Shown here in pieces: positions 42,172-61,544 of a stretch of DNA of 64,000 nt (its first letter is position 1; each line of letters begins with the position of its first letter). This DNA comes from a virus. The stretch lies in IMG/VR virus record IMGVR_UViG_2556921039_000001; one strand, written 5' to 3'. Under the pieces are notes generated by a model. That model worked only from the letters and a program-made list of their open reading frames with translations, ran no database searches and was not told the DNA's origin. Made by a program: the position numbers and the translations under genes.

Positions 42172-42225
42172 ATGACGGCCAGGATTAATTCTCATACCAG
42201 AGAATTATCCCGGCCGTCATTTTTT
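42172..42225 (+). terminator. Long hairpin terminator/attenuator before the sigma70-r4-like gene
   Basis: ATGACGGCC/GGCCGTCAT outer stem plus inner GGATTAATTCTC/GAGAATTATCC, then a T-run. Confidence 0.7.
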
Positions 42226-42286
42226 GTTCTACGGATTTTCGGCTCCTGCGGATTTCAAAAATCTGAAATTCAAGGAGCTGAGAAAA

Positions 42287-42676
42287 ATGAAAATCAAATA
42301 TCACTTCAACACTGAAACCATTGAAATTGAAGTATCTGAAGAGTGGGGAGAAATTCTGGTCGAACTTGACCGTCAGGAATACAACATTAACCATAAAGAG
42401 ACTCGCCGACATACATCACTTGATGCAATGAAATATGAGGGAGAGATTTTCGCAAGCAATACCGACATTGCCGCAGAGTACATAAGAACTCAAGAAAATG
42501 AGACATTGCTAAAAGCCATCGATAGTCTTCTCCCACAGCAAAAAGAACTGGTACGAAGGGTGTACTTCAATAATGAATCCCTTGCTTCAATAGCACGAGA
42601 AGAAGGGGTCAGTAAGATGGCTATTACAAACCGCATGAAAAAGATCCATGAAAAACTAAAAAAAATTTTGAGTTAG
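42287..42676 (+). CDS. Sigma70 region-4-like (Orf7-like) regulator
   Basis: ETRRHTSLD, LLPQQKELVRRVYFNNESLASIAREEGVSKMAITNRM. Confidence 0.8.
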   Translation: MKIKYHFNTETIEIEVSEEWGEILVELDRQEYNINHKETRRHTSLDAMKYEGEIFASNTDIAAEYIRTQENETLLKAIDSLLPQQKELVRRVYFNNESLASIAREEGVSKMAITNRMKKIHEKLKKILS

Positions 42677-53652: not shown

Positions 53653-54204
53653 ATGGCAAAGGACGGTACCAACCGCGGCGGGGCACGTATCGGTGCAGGA
53701 CAGAAGAAAAAACCTCTGGCGGATAAGATTTTGGAAGGAAATCCCGGCAGACGAAAGCTCATGGTAATGGAGTTTACGGATGCTGCGGAACTGGAAGGAG
53801 AGAGCATGCCGCCACCGAGGGATTATCTTGCTGCAAAGCAGAAGAACGGAAAAACAACACTGGCGGTGGAAATATACGAAAAAACATGGCAGTGGCTTAA
53901 GGAACGCAGGTGTGTTCACCTTATCCCTGCGCAGCTTATAGAGCAATATGCCCAGAGTGTGGCGCGGTGGATCCAGTGCGAGGAATGTATCACTGAATTT
54001 GGCTTTCTTGCTAAGCATCCGACGACTGGCAATGCCATCCCGTCACCTTATGTGGCTATGAGTCAAAGCTTCATGAAACAGGCCAATAACCTGTGGTATC
54101 AAATTTATCAAGTCGTGCGGGAAAACTGTGCTACCGAATACAAGGGGGCCACTCCCCACGATGATGTGATGGAAAAACTCCTGACAGCCAGGAGGGGTGG
54201 CTGA
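53653..54204 (+). CDS. Terminase small subunit (P27-like)
   Basis: GTNRGGAR.GAG...GNPG...HPTTG..IPSPYV. Confidence 0.85.
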   Translation: MAKDGTNRGGARIGAGQKKKPLADKILEGNPGRRKLMVMEFTDAAELEGESMPPPRDYLAAKQKNGKTTLAVEIYEKTWQWLKERRCVHLIPAQLIEQYAQSVARWIQCEECITEFGFLAKHPTTGNAIPSPYVAMSQSFMKQANNLWYQIYQVVRENCATEYKGATPHDDVMEKLLTARRGG

Positions 54205-54386
54205 TGCATAAAACAAATTCAATCTTTCTTAGGGAACTAAGAAAATATAAAGACCATTTAACGAAGCAGCAGTTTAAGACTCTGCGGGGACAAGTAATAA
54301 ACGGAGATTGTGAGGGCGCAAAAAAGGGTCTTAAGAAAATATTGAACAGGAGAATGCAGCATGAACATACAAAAAATATCTGTTGA
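54204..54386 (+). CDS. Small phage hypothetical protein
   Basis: TGATG overlap with terS; LTKQQFKTLRGQ. Confidence 0.6.
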   Translation: MHKTNSIFLRELRKYKDHLTKQQFKTLRGQVINGDCEGAKKGLKKILNRRMQHEHTKNIC

Positions 54387-55659
54387 AAAACTTAATCCAG
54401 CAGCATACAACCCGCGCAAGGATTTAAAACCCGGCGATAAGGAATATGAAAAGCTAAAACGGTCAATAGAGGAATTTGGCTATGTGGAGCCTGTTATCTG
54501 GAACCAAAAAACAGGTAATGTGGTAGGCGGGCATCAACGCTTAAAGGTTTTGCTGGACTTGGGACAGACTGAGATAGATTGCGTCGTTGTAGATCTTGAC
54601 CTGCAGAGAGAAAAAGCGCTTAATCTTGCTCTTAATAAGATTCAGGGAGAGTGGGACGAGAATAAACTGGCTGAACTGATGGCCGAGCTTGACGCAGGCG
54701 CGTTTGATGTGTCGCTCACAGGATTTGACGCTTCTGAAATAGACGAACTGCTCAACCGATGGTATGCCAAGGAAGCGGTGCAGGACAGCTTTGACATAGA
54801 TAAAGCGCATGAGGAAATTGTGCAGTGCGAGCCTGTAACGAAGCGGGGCGATATCTGGCTTCTCGGGAATCATCGCTTGATGTGCGGTGACTCTACTAAG
54901 GATGAGGATTTTGAGAAGTTGATGGAAGGGTGTCACGCACAGATGGCAGTGACTTCCCCTCCATATGGGGTAGGCAAAGAATATGAAAAGGCTGGGATTG
55001 AACCATGGTTCGAGACAGTACGCCCAGTGATTAGAAACCTGTGCAAGTATGCAGATATTGTCTGCTGGAACTTAGGTGATCTCTATGCCACCGGCTCTCA
55101 GTTTATTGAACCCACCAGTGTTTACAGTGTGAATATGTTTTTGGCCAATGGTTACCGCCCTATCTGGATCCGCATTTGGAAGAAACAAGGGCAAAATTTC
55201 GGCGTAGGACCTTATCATCTTGTTTCAAACAAGCCGGTTCAGCAATATGAGTATATTTCAGCCTTCAGCAATAAAGGAGAGACTGAGGAATATAACGATC
55301 AGGAATATGTATGGCTTTCAGCCTTTGCGGGACACAGTTATAAATTTGTGAAACGGCTTACAAAGGAAGAACGCAAGAAATGGGGCTATGCTGGGATATG
55401 GGAGATGACCACTGTACGGGCAAACAAGGAGCATCCTGCAATGTTCCCTGTGGAGCTTCCATGGCGGTGCATCAAAATGCACAGCGACAAAGGCGGTATT
55501 GTGCTTGAGCCGTTCTCTGGTAGCGGAACTACTATAATTGCGGCTGAACAGACCGAGCGTAAATGCTACGCAATGGAGTTATCCCCTGTTTACTGTGATT
55601 TAGCTGTTAAGCGCTGGGAGGAATTCACCGGTGAAAAAGCCATCAAACTGGAGGGTTAA
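54361..55659 (+). CDS. ParB-N plus DNA methyltransferase (SPPY, likely m4C)
   Basis: YNPRK...VGGHQR ParB; TSPPY; HPAMFP; EPFSGSGTT. Confidence 0.88.
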   Translation: MNIQKISVEKLNPAAYNPRKDLKPGDKEYEKLKRSIEEFGYVEPVIWNQKTGNVVGGHQRLKVLLDLGQTEIDCVVVDLDLQREKALNLALNKIQGEWDENKLAELMAELDAGAFDVSLTGFDASEIDELLNRWYAKEAVQDSFDIDKAHEEIVQCEPVTKRGDIWLLGNHRLMCGDSTKDEDFEKLMEGCHAQMAVTSPPYGVGKEYEKAGIEPWFETVRPVIRNLCKYADIVCWNLGDLYATGSQFIEPTSVYSVNMFLANGYRPIWIRIWKKQGQNFGVGPYHLVSNKPVQQYEYISAFSNKGETEEYNDQEYVWLSAFAGHSYKFVKRLTKEERKKWGYAGIWEMTTVRANKEHPAMFPVELPWRCIKMHSDKGGIVLEPFSGSGTTIIAAEQTERKCYAMELSPVYCDLAVKRWEEFTGEKAIKLEG

Positions 55660-55664
55660 GATTT

Positions 55665-56918
55665 ATGGATATACTGAAAATACCAACAGAAAAACTAAAA
55701 CCATCTAAATATAATCCGCGGAAAGATTTAAAGCCTGGTGACCCTGAATATGAAAAATTACGTCGGTCTATTGAAGAGTTTGGATATGTAGAGCCGGTTA
55801 TATGGAATAAACGCACCGGGAATATTGTCGGCGGACATCAGCGTTATAAAGTACTTACAGCTTTGGGGTATAAGGAGATCGACTGTGTTGTAGTTGATTT
55901 GGATGAACAGCGGGAAAAGGCGCTCAATGTTGCACTGAATAAAATCAGTGGCGAGTTTGATATTCCGCTTTTGACCGATCTGCTTATGGATTTAAATGAA
56001 GATGGTTTTGACGTTTCTCTTACCGGGTTTGATGCTTCGGAAATTGATGAGTTGTTCCGTGATAAAACAACCGCTAATGTCAAAGAAGATAATTTCGATA
56101 CAGAAAAGGCAATTGCAGAGATTAAAACTCCGGTTACCAAAAAAGGCGACATATGGGTACTTGGCAGCCACCGTCTGATGTGCGGTGATAGCACCATGCT
56201 TTCAGATGTGCAAAAGCTGATGAACGGACAAAAGGCGAGATTTGTTTTCACTGACCCACCCTGGAATGTTGATTACGGTTCAGATACCAGGCATCCAAGC
56301 TGGAAGCCAAGACAAATTCTAAATGACAATATGAGCACCGAAGAATTCGGCGCTTTTTTATTGCGCGCTTTTAAATGCATGAAAGAGGTTTCTGAAGCCG
56401 GATGCATGACCTATGTGGTAATGAGTGCTCAGGAATGGGGCAGTTTGATGAACGTCATGCGGGAGGCAGGGTATCACTGGTCGAGCACAATTATATGGAA
56501 AAAAGACAGCTTGGTACTATCAAGAAAGGACTATCATACCCAGTACGAGCCGATCTGGTACGGTTGGCTTGAAGGAACACGCCTTTGCCCGCTTAAAGAC
56601 CGTAAACAGTCAGATGTTTGGGAGATACCCCGTCCTAAAGTATCGGAGGAGCACCCTACCATGAAGCCGGTATCGCTTGTAGCAAAGGCAATGCTCAATA
56701 GTTCCCATATTGGAGATTTAACTCTTGACCTGTTCGGTGGTTCTGGTACGACAATGATTGCAGCGCAGCAGACCGGGCGGGTTTGTTTTATGATGGAGCT
56801 TGACTCGAAATACTGCGATGTGATTGTAAAGCGCTATGTTTCACAATTTGGCGCAGATTCAGTATTCTTGGTAACAGGTAGTAGAAAAATACCTTACGCG
56901 GAAACACAGATTGATTAA
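55665..56918 (+). CDS. ParB-N plus DNA methyltransferase (DPPW, likely m6A)
   Basis: ParB N-terminus; TDPPW; HPTMKP; DLFGGSGTT. Confidence 0.9.
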   Translation: MDILKIPTEKLKPSKYNPRKDLKPGDPEYEKLRRSIEEFGYVEPVIWNKRTGNIVGGHQRYKVLTALGYKEIDCVVVDLDEQREKALNVALNKISGEFDIPLLTDLLMDLNEDGFDVSLTGFDASEIDELFRDKTTANVKEDNFDTEKAIAEIKTPVTKKGDIWVLGSHRLMCGDSTMLSDVQKLMNGQKARFVFTDPPWNVDYGSDTRHPSWKPRQILNDNMSTEEFGAFLLRAFKCMKEVSEAGCMTYVVMSAQEWGSLMNVMREAGYHWSSTIIWKKDSLVLSRKDYHTQYEPIWYGWLEGTRLCPLKDRKQSDVWEIPRPKVSEEHPTMKPVSLVAKAMLNSSHIGDLTLDLFGGSGTTMIAAQQTGRVCFMMELDSKYCDVIVKRYVSQFGADSVFLVTGSRKIPYAETQID

Positions 56919-56924
56919 AAATGT

Positions 56925-56959
56925 CCTTGCTTTCCCCTCAAAACAGAGCGTTAATGTAC
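56925..56959 (+). promoter_or_regulatory. Module promoter A
   Basis: CCTTGCT-N20-TAATGTAC, repeated with identical spacing at 58327-58361. Confidence 0.55.
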
Positions 56960-57034
56960 CCCGCCAATAAAGAAAGGTGGGATTTTTTATGATCATCAGA
57001 GCAATTTCAGCTTTTCCGGAGGGAGGTGTACGGA

Positions 57035-57709
57035 ATGAGAAATAACAGCTTCCGCTTTTCACAGAAGGTTGCCGGCCAGGAGAGGAAAGTCATTGCCGCA
57101 ATAATCGCCGAGGCCCTCGGAGGCCAGGTGCGCTATGCCGGAGCGCCGGGCTTTACCTACGAAGCTGATGGCTGGACGGTTGACAGGGACAGCGTGGTGC
57201 ATTCGCCGGAAATCGGCCTTGACAAAATCAAAAGCGTCAGGCCGGTGATCGACGCGATGAATATCGCCGGGCTGTCAGCGGAGGAAAACATGACGATTGC
57301 GCTTGCTTTGCACGGCTTTGGCGAGGCGAGCCTTGAAAACCTTAAAAACCTGCTGGCAAGCAAGGAAACGCTGCTCAAGAAAGCGCTGTCTGTCAAGCGC
57401 AATATTGAAGTTTCGGCTGAAAACGGCGAAATCACATTCCCTTTTTGGAATGCGACTTTAAATGCCGACGAGGTGCAGACATATATCACGCTTGCAAGGC
57501 AGATGGCGGAACAGGCCGGGACACAAAAGCGCGTGCTGGCTGCCGAAAAACCGGCGGACAATGAAAAGTATGCCTTCCGCTGCTTCCTGCTTAGGCTGGG
57601 GTTTATCGGGGATGAATTCAGAACTGAGCGCAAGGTGCTGCTTTCAAGGCTGTCCGGCAACGGGGCGTACCGGAAAGGCAGAGCAAAGGCGGCGGATGGA
57701 GATGACTGA
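57035..57709 (+). CDS. Catalytically inactive paralog of the downstream amidoligase (family often labelled 'virulence-related protein')
   Basis: 34/83 ungapped identities to the C-terminus of 58408..59307; HxH and ExR motifs replaced. Confidence 0.75.
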   Translation: MRNNSFRFSQKVAGQERKVIAAIIAEALGGQVRYAGAPGFTYEADGWTVDRDSVVHSPEIGLDKIKSVRPVIDAMNIAGLSAEENMTIALALHGFGEASLENLKNLLASKETLLKKALSVKRNIEVSAENGEITFPFWNATLNADEVQTYITLARQMAEQAGTQKRVLAAEKPADNEKYAFRCFLLRLGFIGDEFRTERKVLLSRLSGNGAYRKGRAKAADGDD

Positions 57710-58031
57710 TTTTCAAAACACCGCCTTCTTTGTGCGGCGTCCGTTTGCGATCGAGGATTTGAGAAAACCGCATCCGCATAAGGAGGAAAAGCCTTTTGCG
57801 GTTGTGAAAACTATCGGGCTTTCAAAGATTGACTATGAGAACTTTATTGCCGATCTGTGCGTCGGCCGCCGGTTTATCGAGGAAAATAAGGAACTCTGCC
57901 GCATTGACGAAGACGGGGTATGGCAATGCCTGCTGGTACAGCGGCGCGGGCGGCCGGACGGAGTCCTGGTGATGCCGGACGACACGGATTATCCCAAATA
58001 CGCCGCATATTATCCGGGAGGAGAGGATTGA
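57702..58031 (+). CDS. Hypothetical protein of the amidoligase module
   Basis: ATG 57702 overlapping the upstream stop; DYENFIADL...CLLV...GVLVMPD..YPKYAAY. Confidence 0.7.
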   Translation: MTDFQNTAFFVRRPFAIEDLRKPHPHKEEKPFAVVKTIGLSKIDYENFIADLCVGRRFIEENKELCRIDEDGVWQCLLVQRRGRPDGVLVMPDDTDYPKYAAYYPGGED

Positions 58032-58034
58032 AAG

Positions 58035-58265
58035 ATGAGCGCAGGAGGCTTTCCTTCAAAAGAAACTGTTCAAAGGCTGAGAGAGGAATATCCGCCCGGA
58101 ACGCGCGTGGAGCTCATCCGCATGGATGATCCGTACGCCGCGCTGAAACCGGGAGATCAAGGCACTGTTTCATTTGTGGATGATATAGGGACTATTTTTG
58201 TGGATTGGGACTGCGGTTCAACCCTCGGCGCGGCCTATGGCGCGGACATGATCAGAAAGCTGTAA
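58035..58265 (+). CDS. DUF4314 protein
   Basis: LREEYPPGTRVELIRMDDPY...GTVSFVDDIGTIFVDWDCGS.LG. Confidence 0.85.
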   Translation: MSAGGFPSKETVQRLREEYPPGTRVELIRMDDPYAALKPGDQGTVSFVDDIGTIFVDWDCGSTLGAAYGADMIRKL

Positions 58266-58326
58266 ATGTACACAAATTAAGACGCGAAAAATTGCTCAAA
58301 ATCCTGCGGAAACTCATGCAGAATTG

Positions 58327-58361
58327 CCTTGCTATCCTGTGTTTTCAATGGCCTAATGTAC
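58327..58361 (+). promoter_or_regulatory. Module promoter B
   Basis: CCTTGCT-N20-TAATGTAC. Confidence 0.55.
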
Positions 58362-58407
58362 ACTGCCGAAGGGCAGAAAACACAGAGAAAGCGAGGAGAA
58401 TGGCGCA

Positions 58408-59307
58408 ATGCTTGAAACGAGATTCGGGATCGAGGTAGAATTTACAGGTATTACAAGGGCGCAGGCGGCAAAGGTCGCCGCGGAGTTTTTGGGCGGGAGG
58501 GTCGAAAGCGGCAGCGACTACTACAACACGCAGAAAGTTATCGCGCCGGACGGACGGGTTTGGAAATTCATGAGCGACGGGAGCATCCGGACGCAGAAAA
58601 AGGAACGCGGCCGGATTGTGGAGGCGGGCTGGGAATACAGCGTGGAGCTGGTAAGCCCCATACTCACCTACCGGGAGGACATTGAAACCCTGCAGGAGCT
58701 GATCAGGAGGTTCCGCAAGGCGGGCGGCTTCAGCAACAGCAGTGCAGGAATTCATGTCCATCTTGACAGCGCAAACCACACGCCAAGAAGCATCCGCAAC
58801 TTCATCAACATCATTGCCAGCAAGAACGACCTGCTCTACAAGGCGCTGCAGATTGAGCCGGAAAGGATGCGTTTTTGCAAGAAGATGGACGCGGCGCTGG
58901 TGGAGAAGATAAACCGCCGCAAGCCGAAGACCATGGCGGCCATTGAGAGCATCTGGTATGAGGGTTACAGCGAAAGCCGCAGCCAGCGATATCATGGAAG
59001 TCGGTACTATTTTCTCAATCTGCACAGCTTTTTCAACGGCAACGGTACGATCGAGCTTCGCGGCTTCAACAGCGAACTCCACGCCGGGATAATAAGGAGC
59101 TACATCGTCCTTGCCTTGGCGCTCAACCATCAGGCGCTGACGCAAAAATGCGCTTCCAGCAAAAAGCCGCAGGTCGAGAACGAGAAGTTTGCCATGCGGA
59201 CATATCTCAACCGCATAGGACTTATTGGTGATGAGTTCAAAAATTGTCGGGAGCACCTTTGCAAACACTTGGGCGGCAACGCGGCATGGCGGTTTCGGGC
59301 GGCATAG
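58408..59307 (+). CDS. Amidoligase (COOH-NH2 ligase type 2, glutamine-synthetase-like fold)
   Basis: FGIEVEF, SDGSI, VELVSP, GIHVHL, TIELR. Confidence 0.88.
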   Translation: MLETRFGIEVEFTGITRAQAAKVAAEFLGGRVESGSDYYNTQKVIAPDGRVWKFMSDGSIRTQKKERGRIVEAGWEYSVELVSPILTYREDIETLQELIRRFRKAGGFSNSSAGIHVHLDSANHTPRSIRNFINIIASKNDLLYKALQIEPERMRFCKKMDAALVEKINRRKPKTMAAIESIWYEGYSESRSQRYHGSRYYFLNLHSFFNGNGTIELRGFNSELHAGIIRSYIVLALALNHQALTQKCASSKKPQVENEKFAMRTYLNRIGLIGDEFKNCREHLCKHLGGNAAWRFRAA

Positions 59308-59368
59308 ATAGACAAGCGCAGGGGCGGATCTCCGCCCCTGCCTTGGTAAATACAAGGAGGATGATACG

Positions 59369-59863
59369 ATGAGCAAAGAAAAAGGAACCATATATTTAGC
59401 ATACGGAAGCAATCTGAACTTAAGGCAGATGGCATACCGCTGCCCGACGGCAAAAGTGCTGGGGAGTGCAAAACTCACAGGCTACCGGCTGTTATTCCGG
59501 GGCGGCAATGGAGGCGCGGTGGCGACGATAGAAAGGCAAAAAGGCGGAAGCGTGCCGGTACTGCTCTGGAGAATCACGCCTTATGACGAGGAAGCGCTGG
59601 ACCGCTATGAAGGCTATCCGCATCTATACCGGAAAGAAACGGTTAAGGTGCGTTTCAAAGGACAGTGGTTGTCCGCAATGGTGTATATCATGGATGAAGG
59701 TAGACATTTGGGAGCACCGGGTCGTTACTATTACGAGGTAATCCGGCAGGGATATATGGACGCGGGCTTTGATATTTCCGTTCTCAATAAAGCGGTGCGG
59801 GATTCGGCGGCGCAGGAGACGGGAGATATAGGGAAAGACGCCGCCGGCATAGAAATTTCATAG
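59369..59863 (+). CDS. Gamma-glutamylcyclotransferase (AIG2-like)
   Basis: YLAYGSNLN...QMAYRCP...LDRYEGYP...Y. Confidence 0.9.
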   Translation: MSKEKGTIYLAYGSNLNLRQMAYRCPTAKVLGSAKLTGYRLLFRGGNGGAVATIERQKGGSVPVLLWRITPYDEEALDRYEGYPHLYRKETVKVRFKGQWLSAMVYIMDEGRHLGAPGRYYYEVIRQGYMDAGFDISVLNKAVRDSAAQETGDIGKDAAGIEIS

Positions 59864-59879
59864 AAATCCACTTGATGAG

Positions 59880-59907
59880 AGGAACTTCGTAAGGAGGTTC
59901 CTTTTTT
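59880..59907 (+). terminator. Intrinsic terminator closing the amidoligase module
   Basis: AGGAACTTC-GTAAG-GAGGTTCCT followed by a T-run. Confidence 0.7.
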
Positions 59908-59939: not shown

Positions 59940-61544
59940 CTGCGGAAGTTAAAGCGATATAAGCCAACCAAGTTTATGGCGGAAGGTTCCCGATACGACA
60001 AGGAAGCGGCGGACGCCGCCGTTGCCTTTATAAACTGCCTGAAGCATACCAAGGGCGAATGGTACGGGATGCCCTTTGAGCTTATTGACTGGCAGGAGCA
60101 GATTGTCCGGGATATATTCGGCGTCTTGAAACCGAACGGATACCGGCAGTTCAACACTGCCTATATAGAAATCCCAAAAAAACAGGGGAAGAGCGAGCTT
60201 GCGGCGGCCATCGCCTTATACCTTACCTGCGGTGATTTCGAGCATGGCGGCGAGGTTTACGGATGTGCATCTGACCGTCAGCAGGCATCCATTGTTTTCG
60301 ATGTTGCAGTAGATATGGTGGAACAGTGTCCGGCATTAAAGTCTCGAATTAAACCAATGCTGTCGCAGAAGCGGCTGGTATATAAACCGTTAGGCAGTTT
60401 TTATCAGGTGCTTTCAGCGGAGGCATATACGAAACATGGGCTAAACGTCCATGGTGTGGTATTTGACGAACTTCATGCCCAGCCAAACAGGGATCTTTAT
60501 GATGTAATGCTTCACGGATCTGGCGATGCAAGAAAACAGCCGCTGTTTTTCCTGATTACAACTGCTGGCACAGACCGCAATTCCATCTGCTGGGAAGTAC
60601 ATCAAAAGGCTGAGGATATTCTTCAAGGGCGTAAGATAGATCCGACTTTCTACCCTGTTATCTACAGCGCAGCCGATACCGATGACTGGACAAGTGAAAA
60701 GGTATGGAGAAAGGTTAACCCGTCACTGGGCATTACAGTCGACATCGAAAAATTGAGGGTGGCTTGTGAAAATGCCAAGCAAAATCCTGCAGAGGAAAAT
60801 TTATTCCGTCAGCTCCGCTTAAATCAGTGGGTGAAACAATCGGTGCGCTGGATGCCAATGGATAAATGGGATAAGTGTGCGTTTCCTGTTGATGCAGAAA
60901 AATTGCGCGGCAGAACCTGTTACGGAGGACTTGACCTGTCATCTACTACCGATATTACCGCCTTTGTGCTGGTGTTTCCACCGCTTGATGAATCTGATAA
61001 ATATCAGATTCTACCTTTTTTCTGGATACCGGAGGAGAATATTGATCAGCGTGTGCGGAGAGATCATGTGCCTTATGATGTCTGGGAGAGGCAAGGCTTT
61101 TTATATACCACTGAGGGTAACGTCGTGCATTATGGCTTTATCGAAACCTTTATTGAGGAACTCGGAATGAAATATAACATTAAGGAAATAGCCTTTGACC
61201 GCTGGGGCGCAATTCAGATGACGCAAAACCTCGAGGCTTTGGGGTTTACGGTTGTTCCATTCGGTCAGGGTTTCAAGGATATGTCGCCGCCTACAAAAGA
61301 GTTGATGAAGCTGACATTGGAAGAACGCATCGCCCATGGTGGTAATCCAGTACTGCGGTGGATGATGGACAATATCTATGTCAAAACCGATCCCGCCGGA
61401 AACATTAAGCCGGATAAAGAAAAATCCACCGAGAGAATAGATGGTGCGGTAGCGTTAATTATGGCGCTTGACCGCGCGTTAAGGCATGACGGGGATGAAC
61501 GCAACGGATCAATTTATGATGAAAGGGGGCTGTTGATTATATGA
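59940..61544 (+). CDS. Terminase large subunit
   Basis: IPKKQGKSEL, VVFDELH, TTAG, GGLDLS, DRWG, ERIDGAVALIMA; start may be CTG 59940 or ATG 59976. Confidence 0.95.
   Translation: MRKLKRYKPTKFMAEGSRYDKEAADAAVAFINCLKHTKGEWYGMPFELIDWQEQIVRDIFGVLKPNGYRQFNTAYIEIPKKQGKSELAAAIALYLTCGDFEHGGEVYGCASDRQQASIVFDVAVDMVEQCPALKSRIKPMLSQKRLVYKPLGSFYQVLSAEAYTKHGLNVHGVVFDELHAQPNRDLYDVMLHGSGDARKQPLFFLITTAGTDRNSICWEVHQKAEDILQGRKIDPTFYPVIYSAADTDDWTSEKVWRKVNPSLGITVDIEKLRVACENAKQNPAEENLFRQLRLNQWVKQSVRWMPMDKWDKCAFPVDAEKLRGRTCYGGLDLSSTTDITAFVLVFPPLDESDKYQILPFFWIPEENIDQRVRRDHVPYDVWERQGFLYTTEGNVVHYGFIETFIEELGMKYNIKEIAFDRWGAIQMTQNLEALGFTVVPFGQGFKDMSPPTKELMKLTLEERIAHGGNPVLRWMMDNIYVKTDPAGNIKPDKEKSTERIDGAVALIMALDRALRHDGDERNGSIYDERGLLII

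Follow-up and report, generated by a model that had tools for sequence, protein, structure and literature searches.

Five co-oriented genes within positions 56925–59907 of the window (the 64,000-nucleotide stretch of viral DNA analyzed here) encode a "virulence-related protein" (VRP), a 109-residue DUF6329-like protein, a DUF4314 protein, an Amidoligase_2 ligase, and a γ-glutamyl cyclotransferase (GGCT/AIG2). The reading that we tentatively favor, giving it close to an even chance, is that of an exchangeable accessory cassette, in which the enzyme pair would add a γ-glutamyl group to an amine of the envelope or peptidoglycan and remove it again, with VRP and DUF4314 as a non-catalytic binder. 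This cassette of a Ca. Heliusvirales-type temperate siphophage would consist of two separable sub-modules headed by the same cis element: the first comprising VRP, the DUF6329-like protein and DUF4314, translationally coupled, and the second the ligase and GGCT.

Organization of the Gene Block

The cassette sits at the end of a DNA-methyltransferase island between terS and terL, flanked by two ParB-N6/N4 methyltransferases on one side and TerL on the other. The same island encodes a SAM synthetase, PAPS-reductase-like and SLOG genes, and a C5 methyltransferase. A sequence-only reading of this DNA had described the block as a self-contained, GC-rich module with its own terminator, and each of these points was borne out. 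The GC content is 0.51–0.56 within the block, compared to 0.42–0.49 upstream and 0.45–0.48 downstream, though it climbs back to 0.55 from 62.2 kb onward. The block ends in an intrinsic-terminator-like hairpin of 12 pairs with a loop of 5, followed by a T run (59877–59905, plus strand), and a mosaic boundary coincides with this terminator. The block also behaves as an exchangeable unit, with 73–88% nucleotide identity between phages whose flanks are 95–99% identical. No NCBIfam model matched any of the five proteins, and no Rfam family was found within 56.5–60.2 kb.

Both sub-modules carry a module-specific cis element, which had been noted earlier as a promoter-like motif ahead of each paralog. 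The motif CCTTGCT-N20-TAATGTAC occurs exactly twice in the window against an expectation of zero, both times on the plus strand: at 56925–56959, approximately 75–110 nt upstream of the VRP start, and at 58327–58361, approximately 47–80 nt upstream of the ligase start. The first copy is followed by a small hairpin and a T run (about 56960–56992), the second by a CTGCC-GAAG-GGCAG hairpin. Among relatives the element is conserved with a variable spacer, and a relaxed version of the motif was found upstream of VRP in 93 of 199 cases, upstream of the ligase in 86 of 186, and upstream of eight other genes in none of 1176. The intergenic region 58266–58407 is 90–94% identical in relatives whose adjoining coding sequence is 77–82% identical. 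The element is not a canonical sigma-A promoter, as it was not called in a sigma-70 consensus scan, and the leaders 3' of both motifs fold no better than shuffled sequence.

VRP as an Inactive Paralog of the Ligase

VRP (57035–57709, plus strand, 224 residues; phrog_2443, 6.8e-50) was previously proposed to be a homolog of the amidoligase encoded at 58408. BLASTP confirms this relation with 35 identities over 84 ungapped C-terminal positions (E = 4e-18) and 11 of 23 identities in a helix (SLENLKNLLASK / SIRNFINIIASK), and the two family profiles align over their full length (HHalign 99.95%, E = 5e-38). Against Pfam Amidoligase_2 (PF12224), VRP scores 18.3 bits over a partial stretch, below the cut-off of 22. 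The catalytic residues E9, E11, H116, H118, E216 and R218 of the ligase are replaced in VRP by S, K, T, A, T and P, respectively, and VRP also lacks two segments of about 20 and 52 residues that are conserved in the ligase. All six residues are invariant across the ligase family and missing throughout the VRP family, which comprises more than 4500 clusters at 50% identity. The loss of the HxH and ExR motifs, first read from this one protein, is a family-wide trait, although the earlier IHVHL/IALAL register was off by 1–2 residues. Judged by its sequence, VRP is a pseudo-enzyme, a trimmed but full-length homolog of the ligase. The residues it has kept are non-catalytic: R17, an ASKxxLxKAL helix, and a C-terminal NxK[YF]AxRxxLxRxGxIG helical hairpin.

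An AF2 model of VRP (pLDDT 90.4, pTM 0.86) found Dop, PafA, GS, GmaS and YbdK as its best PDB matches (Foldseek probability 1.0), with TM scores by query of 0.44–0.48 at 7–12% sequence identity, and amidoligase-type AFDB clusters with a TM score of 0.86. The model lets us assign a carboxylate–amine ligase (GS/Dop-like) fold to VRP with confidence, and together with the profile alignment it points to one fold for both paralogs instead of two unrelated ones. Searching solved structures by sequence gave no genuine match, and no solved member of the Amidoligase_2 family was detected in this way; the TALE matches to VRP that appeared in this search were rejected as repeat-summed noise. The family does go by the names "virulence-related" or "hypothetical", as had been stated, yet PHROGs groups both paralogs in phrog_2443, and Pharokka/PHROGs labels both "amidoligase enzyme", a label that is misleading for VRP.

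We also considered the C-terminal module shared by VRP and the ligase as a site for mutual docking. The identity between the two modules is 0.556 within the same phage and 0.550 between phages, in a comparison that is confounded by relatedness. Since this co-evolution effect is negligible as well as confounded, we dropped the idea.

The Two Small Proteins

The gene for the 109-residue protein (57702–58031, plus strand) starts with an 8-nt overlap with the VRP stop. Its product appears to be a divergent DUF6329 member: it matches phrog_21303 (6.5e-15) and the DUF6329 protein of a conjugative element (BLASTP, 5e-13), and scores 20.3–21.8 bits against DUF6329 (PF19854), short of the cut-off of 26.8. 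Homologs of this protein are encoded directly 3' of an M23 peptidase in 50 conjugative-element loci.

The DUF4314 protein (PF14192; 58035–58265, plus strand; 110 bits against a cut-off of 27) is the sole copy in the genome and is predicted to form a small SH3/Tudor/KOW-like barrel. Its model (pLDDT 89.6) matches generic small barrels (Z ≤ 7.1), among which are those of helicases and of one restriction enzyme, and a protein atlas search returned unnamed clusters alone, all scoring below 0.9. DUF4314 follows VRP in 71 of 74 loci, the two genes overlap or abut, and one natural VRP::DUF4314 fusion was found (P0124). Gene adjacency and this fusion suggest that the two proteins may bind each other. 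We rejected the idea that DUF4314 could be a tag resembling Pup or ubiquitin, because its C-terminus is not conserved; a conserved C-terminus as in Pup is absent from every small protein of the block.

The Ligase and the Cyclotransferase

The Amidoligase_2 protein (58408–59307, plus strand, 299 residues; Pfam 3.7e-75) resembles GS-like carboxylate–amine ligases and ends in the helical module common to VRP. It scores 253.4 bits against PF12224 (cut-off 22), covering domain positions 2–244 of 245, and is about 77% identical across many Bacillota. The six catalytic residues (E9 to R218), a GS-like set of two Glu on strand 1, HxH and ExR, show no variation among 81 phage sequences or in a set of 20 to which conjugative elements contribute. 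From this intact catalytic set we predict an active ATP-dependent carboxylate–amine ligase.

The GGCT/GGACT protein (59369–59863, plus strand, 164 residues), an AIG2-like γ-glutamyl cyclotransferase, is recognized by Pfam GGACT (PF06094; 2.6e-14, 54.2 bits, cut-off 22.8), AIG2_2 (PF13772; 6.7e-07, 30.1 bits, cut-off 27) and phrog_2520 (8.6e-46). Its motifs YGSNLN and LDRYEGYP (LDxYEGYP) do not vary among 75 sequences, and the Glu conserved within xEG is presumably catalytic, as in GGACT structures. GGCT follows the ligase at every locus seen, in phages and in conjugative elements. A GC-rich hairpin separates the two genes (59313–59345, plus strand; MFE −28.7 kcal/mol, z −4.26). Its 7-bp core is kept in 23 relatives, with one-sided, G–U-compatible changes and no compensatory pairs, and it has no Rfam match.

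GS, GCS2 and PafA use the γ-carboxylate of glutamate, and GGACT cleaves ε-(γ-glutamyl)-lysine. By what is known of these families, the ligase would activate a glutamate-type carboxylate with ATP and join it to an amine, which GGCT would free again as 5-oxoproline, resulting in reversible γ-glutamyl capping. Co-expression of a writer with its eraser looks futile unless the two are separated in time or place.

Distribution among Phages

VRP and DUF4314 are a near-universal unit of a Ca. Heliusvirales-type lineage, to which the ligase and GGCT are an optional add-on in phages. Among the 74 phage loci counted, which are those with TerL downstream, 37 contain VRP and DUF4314 without the enzyme pair, which is thus missing from half of the VRP loci. 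Phage ligase and GGCT always occur together, and VRP lies upstream of them in all class-1 loci that have upstream sequence and in 64 of 67 class-2 loci. VRP is present in at least 52 of the best 60 TerL records, and very few phages of the TerL clade (at least 73% identity) are without it. The window TerL is 74–82% identical to that of deposited NatCom/IMGVR heliusvirus genomes. The order is marked by its TerL clade, portal, protease, capsid, DNA polymerase, helicase, nuclease and SSB (PMC11283538); family-A DNA polymerase, SNF2 helicase and portal are present here, and further markers fall beyond the window. The VRP-bearing TerL lineage is probably that of the "NatCom" heliusviruses of PMC11283538.

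The fixed place of VRP just upstream of terL and its near-universal presence across this TerL clade are what one would expect if VRP and DUF4314 assisted the terminase in packaging or head assembly as an accessory specific to the lineage, with the ligase and GGCT as an unrelated moron beside it. We regard this possibility as very improbable. In phages whose TerL and portal share 75% identity, VRP is just 35–40% identical, and phages that are otherwise nearly the same exchange divergent alleles of VRP. Moreover, VRP has its own cis element in common with the ligase gene, and its descent from the neighboring ligase argues for a related function. Together, VRP and DUF4314 make up the constant but rapidly evolving part of the lineage. 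A role of VRP as an anti-restriction gene of plasmids or conjugative elements was also rejected, as 5 of 72,556 plasmid records hold VRP and none of these is mobilizable.

The Enzyme Pair in Conjugative Elements

Ligase and GGCT also occur without VRP or DUF4314 in the T4SS operons of about 80 Clostridial conjugative elements (ICEs). The gene order TrbL..VirB4-ligase-GGCT-M23-DUF6329 recurs in about 80 genomes, with VirB4 ahead of the pair and an M23 cell-wall hydrolase behind it. An ICE of this kind resides in the same genome as the block and carries a true DUF6329 gene. Its ligase shares 52% identity with the window ligase, and it has the C-terminal module in the absence of any VRP.

The separate occurrence of both pairs indicates that the ligase does not depend on VRP and that VRP is no dedicated ligase subunit. 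The sequence-only reading had treated the block as one integrated system, and this claim survives in part: the shared fold, the cis element, the exchange as a unit and the family chemistry all speak for it, but the five genes are not obligate partners, as VRP and DUF4314 stand alone in half of the phage loci and the enzyme pair in the ICE operons.

In that original version, the ligase would write a peptide tag, GGCT would erase it, and VRP with the small partners would regulate or present the substrate, all driven by the block's own promoters in the lysogen for defense or counter-defense. The phage ligase is almost never seen without VRP upstream, both genes are headed by the module-specific element, the block moves as a unit with its own terminator, and the nearest solved folds are those of a writer/eraser pair, Pup ligase and depupylase. 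We nevertheless consider this integrated tagging system unlikely, given the independent occurrence of both pairs and the unconserved C-terminus of DUF4314. In addition, a search of PADLOC-DB 2.0 found no defense-system match for four of the block proteins and one chance-level hit for DUF4314 (E = 0.0036). As to expression, contigs of several strains in two anaerobic-digester metatranscriptomes cover the whole of 44–64 kb, with DNA carry-over possible, and because of this coverage lysogenic and late expression are inseparable. The isolate transcriptome X13 contained no contig on the block, and run X4 (type not known) gave a single 1022-nt contig spanning 58490–59511 only.

Possible Targets of the Enzyme Pair

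The most likely target would be an amine of the cell envelope, such as the amine through which peptidoglycan stem peptides are cross-linked, or that of a cytoplasmic precursor, because the same enzyme pair and DUF6329 are fixed in T4SS operons beside an M23 peptidoglycan hydrolase. Since neither enzyme has a signal peptide, any envelope target would have to be a cytoplasmic precursor. The location of the phage block, which adjoins methyltransferases and terminase and not lysis genes, counts against this interpretation.

The same location invites the alternative of a DNA-modification or anti-restriction island, in which ligase and GGCT would build or trim an adduct of amino-acid type on DNA or a nucleotide, and VRP–DUF4314 would be DNA-associated or anti-restriction. 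ParB-N6/N4 and C5 methyltransferase genes always precede the block, which shares the terS–terL island with the SAM synthetase, PAPS-reductase-like and SLOG genes. Furthermore, amidoligase-domain genes have been found alongside thymidine hypermodification clusters in viral contigs (PMC8989533), DUF4314 resembles the barrels of helicases and a restriction enzyme, and VRP diverges rapidly, with its alleles exchanged between phages. However, the prophage arm seen here contains no 5-hmdU kinase, dUMP hydroxymethylase or aGPT-Pplase, which would belong to thymidine hypermodification, and in ICEs the pair goes with VirB4 and a wall hydrolase, not with methyltransferases. GGCT requires a γ-glutamyl amide with a free α-amine, which is not known in DNA, and VRP is nearly missing from plasmids. 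Taken with these objections, a DNA-directed role seems quite unlikely.

In the envelope reading that we favor, VRP descends from the ligase, having lost the metal, ATP and phosphate ligands together with the two segments but kept conserved non-catalytic surfaces. With its SH3-like and occasionally fused partner DUF4314, VRP would most likely bind the ligand or target of the ligase without modifying it. The link between VRP–DUF4314 and the envelope is indirect, because the ICE version does without these two proteins. A more specific scenario, which we judge decidedly improbable, is that the dead amidoligase and its SH3-like partner form a hallmark, rapidly diversifying host-interaction factor of an order that ranks among the most prevalent phages of the human gut: ligase and GGCT would reversibly cap the cross-linking amine of peptidoglycan for phages and ICEs alike, locally softening or re-marking the Gram-positive wall during DNA passage, and VRP would have turned from this enzyme into a binder that blocks or senses the same precursor.

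Relation to Known Systems

The ligase–GGCT pair became known in 2009 and has appeared in annotations from 2012 onward. Iyer, Abhiman, Burroughs and Aravind (Mol Biosyst, 2009) reportedly described an "Amidoligase_2 + Aig2-family cyclotransferase" neighborhood in Firmicutes phages and prophages, the same two adjacent enzyme families as in the block, and are said to have predicted that the pair makes or modifies a peptide- or cell-wall-type amide. This work is presumably the basis of Pfam PF12224. To our knowledge, and going by its citation in later work, it did not set apart the dead paralog, the DUF4314 partner, the core-plus-optional rule or the cis element.

The fold of VRP is shared by PafA/Dop, glutamine synthetase, GmaS and YbdK/GCS2. 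In the PafA/Dop family paralogs write and erase a glutamyl isopeptide, whereas the block would assign erasure to the unrelated GGCT fold. VRP is half the size of these enzymes and is devoid of the nucleotide and metal ligands retained by Dop. Pupylation (PafA/Dop/Pup) also calls for a small tag with a conserved C-terminal Glu/Gln and for a ligase whose nucleotide site is intact; the block contains no Pup-like tag, and its likeness does not go beyond the fold.

The pairing of a writer with an eraser has a working model in butirosin biosynthesis, where γ-glutamyl serves as a transient protecting group: the ATP-dependent ligase BtrJ adds it to an amine and the GGCT-fold enzyme BtrG later removes it as 5-oxoproline. 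Unlike the GS-like block ligase, BtrJ belongs to the ATP-grasp enzymes and acts on a carrier-protein-bound metabolite, and the block gives no hint of a biosynthetic cluster. Immunity to lysostaphin, an M23 hydrolase, is provided by Lif/Epr through editing of the cross-bridges in peptidoglycan; Lif is one of the tRNA-dependent transferases of FemABX type. This analogy applies to the ICE version only, in which the gene for a secreted M23 hydrolase adjoins those for cytoplasmic enzymes that may edit a peptidoglycan precursor. In contrast to both, the phage cassette has no adjoining hydrolase.

Copies of the cassette are present in public records. Module B of Tn6164 from C. difficile encodes a virulence-related protein (Orf21), an amidoligase (Orf22), AIG2/GGCT (Orf23) and a terminase (Orf24; PMC3485107), and prophages of C. 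clostridioforme LM41 contain two "amidoligase" ORFs and GGCT (PMC11318856). Terrisporobacter phage TPDSL_ph1 carries an annotated copy, and Streptococcus Javan and Erysipelothrix phi1605 phages have VRP only. The gene order between methyltransferase and terminase in these records is that of the block. These records list the genes, but none marks one copy as inactive, as VRP appears to be here.

Significance

In Firmicutes of the gut and of digesters, few phages are as widespread as heliusvirus-type prophages (PMC11283538). VRP–DUF4314 is present in almost all of these and the enzyme pair in about half, while databases call VRP an "amidoligase enzyme" or a "virulence factor". The constant, non-catalytic pair can now be told apart from the optional enzyme pair, which is also a fixed part of conjugation operons, next to a wall hydrolase, and is therefore found in two genetic systems, phage and ICE. 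Peptidoglycan precursors and the amines of lysine or diaminopimelate are candidate substrates, and the specific cis element offers a further handle. If the envelope reading is wrong, the annotation of the pseudo-enzyme still needs correcting; if it is true, the enzyme pair would represent a new way for mobile elements to edit the Gram-positive wall.

Results and Discussion

The block at 56925-59907 consists of five plus-strand genes, bordered upstream by two ParB-N/N6-N4 DNA methyltransferase genes (54361-55659 and 55665-56918) and downstream by the gene for the large terminase TerL (59976-61544). The first gene (57035-57709, ATG with GGAGG 8 nt upstream) codes for a 224-aa virulence-related protein (VRP), and its stop is overlapped by the gene for a 109-aa protein (57702-58031), a divergent DUF6329 member. 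These are followed by DUF4314 (58035-58265), an Amidoligase_2 enzyme (58408-59307) and a GGACT/AIG2 cyclotransferase (GGCT, 59369-59863). The prophage around this block contains a sigma-like gene, SNF2 helicase, family-A DNA polymerase, Bro/ANT antirepressor, primase-polymerase and HNH genes, and also encodes a P27-type TerS, TerL and portal; its early arm starts with a small sigma-70 region-4 protein of 150 aa (42224-42676). The TerL is 74-82% identical to that of genomes deposited as 'NatCom/IMGVR', which belong to Ca. Heliusvirales (PMC11283538). In some relatives the terL open frame reaches 860-890 aa (L004:3586-6168, L085:9576-12158, L114, L115 and L137) versus 522 aa in the window, which suggests an intein or other insertion; the record of phage phi1605 also mentions a TerL with an intein. 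A 377-aa antisense frame across the ligase gene (58345-59478, minus strand) matches no family; GC-rich codon usage most likely accounts for it.

The sequence-only reading described VRP as a paralogue of the amidoligase that is usually labelled virulence-related, and as a pseudo-enzyme. Both statements were borne out. By BLASTP the two C-termini share 35/84 ungapped identities (E 4e-18) and the ASK helix region gives another match; the two family profiles align over their full length (HHalign 99.95%, E 5e-38). In this alignment the invariant ligase residues E9, E11, H116, H118, E216 and R218 are replaced by S, K, T, A, T and P, so that all six catalytic residues are lost, and VRP is missing two ligase segments (~61-80 and ~155-206) that are both rich in invariant residues. 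The losses are common to all VRP alignments examined (39 and 120 sequences). A confident AlphaFold model of VRP (pLDDT 90.4, pTM 0.86) finds its best solved-structure matches in the depupylase Dop, the Pup ligase PafA, glutamine synthetases, GmaS and YbdK (probability 1.0), and superposes on amidoligase-type clusters in the AlphaFold DB with a TM of 0.86; the predicted fold is that of the carboxylate-amine ligases, not an unrelated one. Judged by profile alignment, lost catalytic residues and model matches together, VRP is a trimmed and catalytically dead member of this fold. Other records name it 'virulence-related protein' or 'virulence factor', PHROGs places both VRP and the ligase in phrog_2443 'amidoligase enzyme', and the VRP family comprises 4575 clusters at 50% identity.

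The most conserved stretch of VRP is its C-terminal NEKYAFRCFLLRLGFIG..(E/D)(Y/F)K..RK.LL..L.G..AF, with ~20 invariant positions; R17 and the SKETLIKKAL helix are likewise kept, and all three are conserved in the ligases too. The C-terminal module lies outside the Pfam domain, yet is intrinsic to this ligase subfamily. We rejected the idea that it is a mutual docking tag, because a ligase in a conjugative element (ICE) of the same genome contains the module without a VRP partner, and because the VRP and ligase copies of one phage are no more alike than copies from different phages. The module is best read as an inherited structural or substrate-side element.

For gene order we used IMG/VR loci anchored on VRP (80), on the window-type ligase (class 1, 80) and on a second phage ligase class with 45% identity (class 2, 80), with ORFs typed by BLASTP against the window proteins. 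Among the 74 VRP-anchored loci having TerL downstream, 35 show VRP-DUF4314-TerL and 27 show VRP-DUF4314-ligase-GGCT-TerL; seven have the latter order plus the 109-aa gene, two read VRP-109-aa gene-DUF4314-TerL without ligase-GGCT, and three have other orders without DUF4314 (one with ligase-GGCT). DUF4314 thus follows VRP in 71/74 loci, mostly abutting or overlapping it, and a natural VRP::DUF4314 fusion exists (P0124). Ligase and GGCT occur in 35/74 of these loci and never one without the other; in the ligase-anchored set GGCT follows the ligase in 73/73. VRP is present in all class-1 loci whose upstream sequence is available and in 64/67 class-2 loci. Among cultured phages, Streptococcus Javan105 and Erysipelothrix phi1605 carry VRP-DUF4314 without the enzyme pair, and Terrisporobacter TPDSL_ph1 carries the full block. 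VRP is almost missing from plasmids (5/72,556 records, 0 mobilizable).

The same genome contains a second Amidoligase_2 (340 aa), located in the type IV secretion (T4SS) operon of the ICE on contig C2 (G000:C2:17143-30245, equivalent to L241:3144-16246). The operon runs TrbL, small genes, VirB4-type ATPase, ligase, GGCT, M23 peptidase, Fic, a true DUF6329 protein and MobL relaxase. The ligase starts 13 nt past the VirB4 stop and the M23 gene overlaps the GGCT stop; in the ICE the enzyme pair is translationally tied to a wall hydrolase. The order VirB4-ligase-GGCT-M23 recurs, wherever sequence extends, in 80 loci of other Bacillota genomes with ligases 66-96% identical, and in 50/80 a homologue of the window 109-aa protein directly follows M23. 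Neither VRP nor DUF4314 was found in these 80 loci. In a quick tree the ligases split cleanly into three clades, one for phage class 1, one for the ICEs and one for phage class 2. Since the pair occurs with a DUF6329-type protein in both ICEs and phages, and in three clades, we conclude that it is an old unit common to two kinds of element that move DNA through the Gram-positive wall. Among the papers covered by a literature search, none mentioned ligase-GGCT with VirB4 or M23.

These gene orders bear on the proposal that all five genes form one reversible system of writer, eraser and regulatory pseudo-enzyme. The linkage of enzyme pair and VRP in phages stands, but the idea of a single system is weakened because the two sub-modules are independent of each other: 35/74 loci hold VRP-DUF4314-TerL only, and the ICE pair lacks VRP. 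A role of the block in DNA modification is suggested by the adjoining methyltransferase island and by the amidoligases found in thymidine-hypermodification clusters (PMC8989533), but does not fit the ICE context, and the pathway genes were not found in this prophage arm.

The shared promoter-like motif (CCTTGCT-N20) proposed for the two paralogues is present in two exact copies, at 56925-56959 before VRP and 58327-58361 before the ligase, where 0 are expected. Relatives keep the ends CTTGCT[AT] ... [AT]ATGTAC with a variable spacer. A relaxed pattern (225 plus-strand matches in 2.7 Mb) lies ≤200 nt upstream of VRP in 93/199 loci and of the ligase in 86/186, as opposed to 0/1176 starts of eight other genes, and the region upstream of the ligase is 90-94% conserved, above the coding sequence on both sides. 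It follows that the element is real, is specific to the VRP and ligase genes and was probably duplicated together with the gene; no copy precedes any other late gene in the window. A sigma-70 scan of the window made no call there. In more distant phages its form is TTGCTAT..TTYAGAGYGATATATGTAC, which resembles a promoter of the extended -10 type.

A terminator scan called a hairpin at 59877-59905, in agreement with the claim that the module has a terminator of its own. A strong GC hairpin (59313-59345, z -4.26) between the ligase and GGCT genes is conserved with G-U-compatible changes only; it shows no compensatory pairs, and Rfam gave no match. The spacer was compared with that of relatives (L003, L020, L023, L056, L059 and L071). 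In class 2 its make-up differs: a hairpin precedes a conserved CTTWWGGTGGTAGAAG box, and the GGCT Shine-Dalgarno can pair with a short segment upstream. This may be translational control of GGCT, the eraser.

Six relatives share TerS, both methyltransferases and TerL with the window at 95-99% DNA identity, and are only 73-88% identical to it over the whole stretch between the first intergenic region and GGCT, both included. Locus L084 shows the reverse: the block is 93-100% identical, and TerS, a 60-aa gene and the first methyltransferase are divergent. The mosaic boundaries, at ~56.9 and ~59.9 kb, coincide with the ends of the block; its GC excess, also confirmed, fits a mosaic origin, and the description as a self-contained GC-rich module holds. 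Another mosaic joint lies just after terS (54204-54386), where L084, L014, L090, L094 and L088, otherwise close relatives, carry unrelated sequence (~11% aligned identity) in place of the 60-aa gene that precedes the first methyltransferase. The terS-terL island of L025, L045, L028 and L051 holds, besides methyltransferases, a PAPS-reductase-like gene, a SLOG/YAcAr protein and DUF7698 proteins, and the DUF4314-to-terL interval is a further variable slot.

Position and prevalence of VRP-DUF4314 (VRP is carried by at least 52/60 GenBank phage records with the most similar TerL) would agree with a packaging role, which fits only in part: its divergence disagrees, VRP being 35-40% identical across the lineage versus ~75% for TerL or portal. 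In two digester metatranscriptomes, summed contig depth falls 10- to 50-fold over 57341-58007 (VRP C-terminal half plus 109-aa gene) versus both flanks. This is consistent with a part that differs most between strains present together, and has no bearing on expression. One 1022-nt contig with 2 differences matches 58490-59511 (small run X4, library type unclear, 'organism A'); it spans the ligase and GGCT start only, and no other part of the 20 kb compared.

Conclusion

The genes already appear in published prophage tables, either as 'two amidoligases plus GGCT' (PMC11318856) or, for Tn6164, as 'virulence-related protein, amidoligase, AIG2/GGCT, terminase' (PMC3485107). This analysis adds the co-occurrence rules, the VRP::DUF4314 fusion, the limits of the cassette, the cis element's restriction to the two paralogues and the conserved T4SS/M23 context. 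The block is real and clearly bounded: an accessory cassette whose enzymes belong to known families and whose pseudo-enzyme core had gone unrecognised.

Based on the chemistry of the GS/GCS2/PafA superfamily and of GGACT, the ligase would make a gamma-glutamyl-type amide at ATP expense and GGCT would release the amine again as 5-oxoproline. Because of the ICE context, the leading candidate for the target is an envelope amine, which could be the cross-linking amine of the stem peptide while still part of a cytoplasmic precursor; a reported older prediction of cell-wall modification is in agreement. We infer that VRP-DUF4314 may be a non-catalytic derivative that retains ligand or target binding, with DUF4314, an SH3/Tudor/KOW-like barrel in its predicted model, as a possible adaptor. 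The fast change and allele swapping of VRP-DUF4314 suggest that it would serve as a host-interaction surface.
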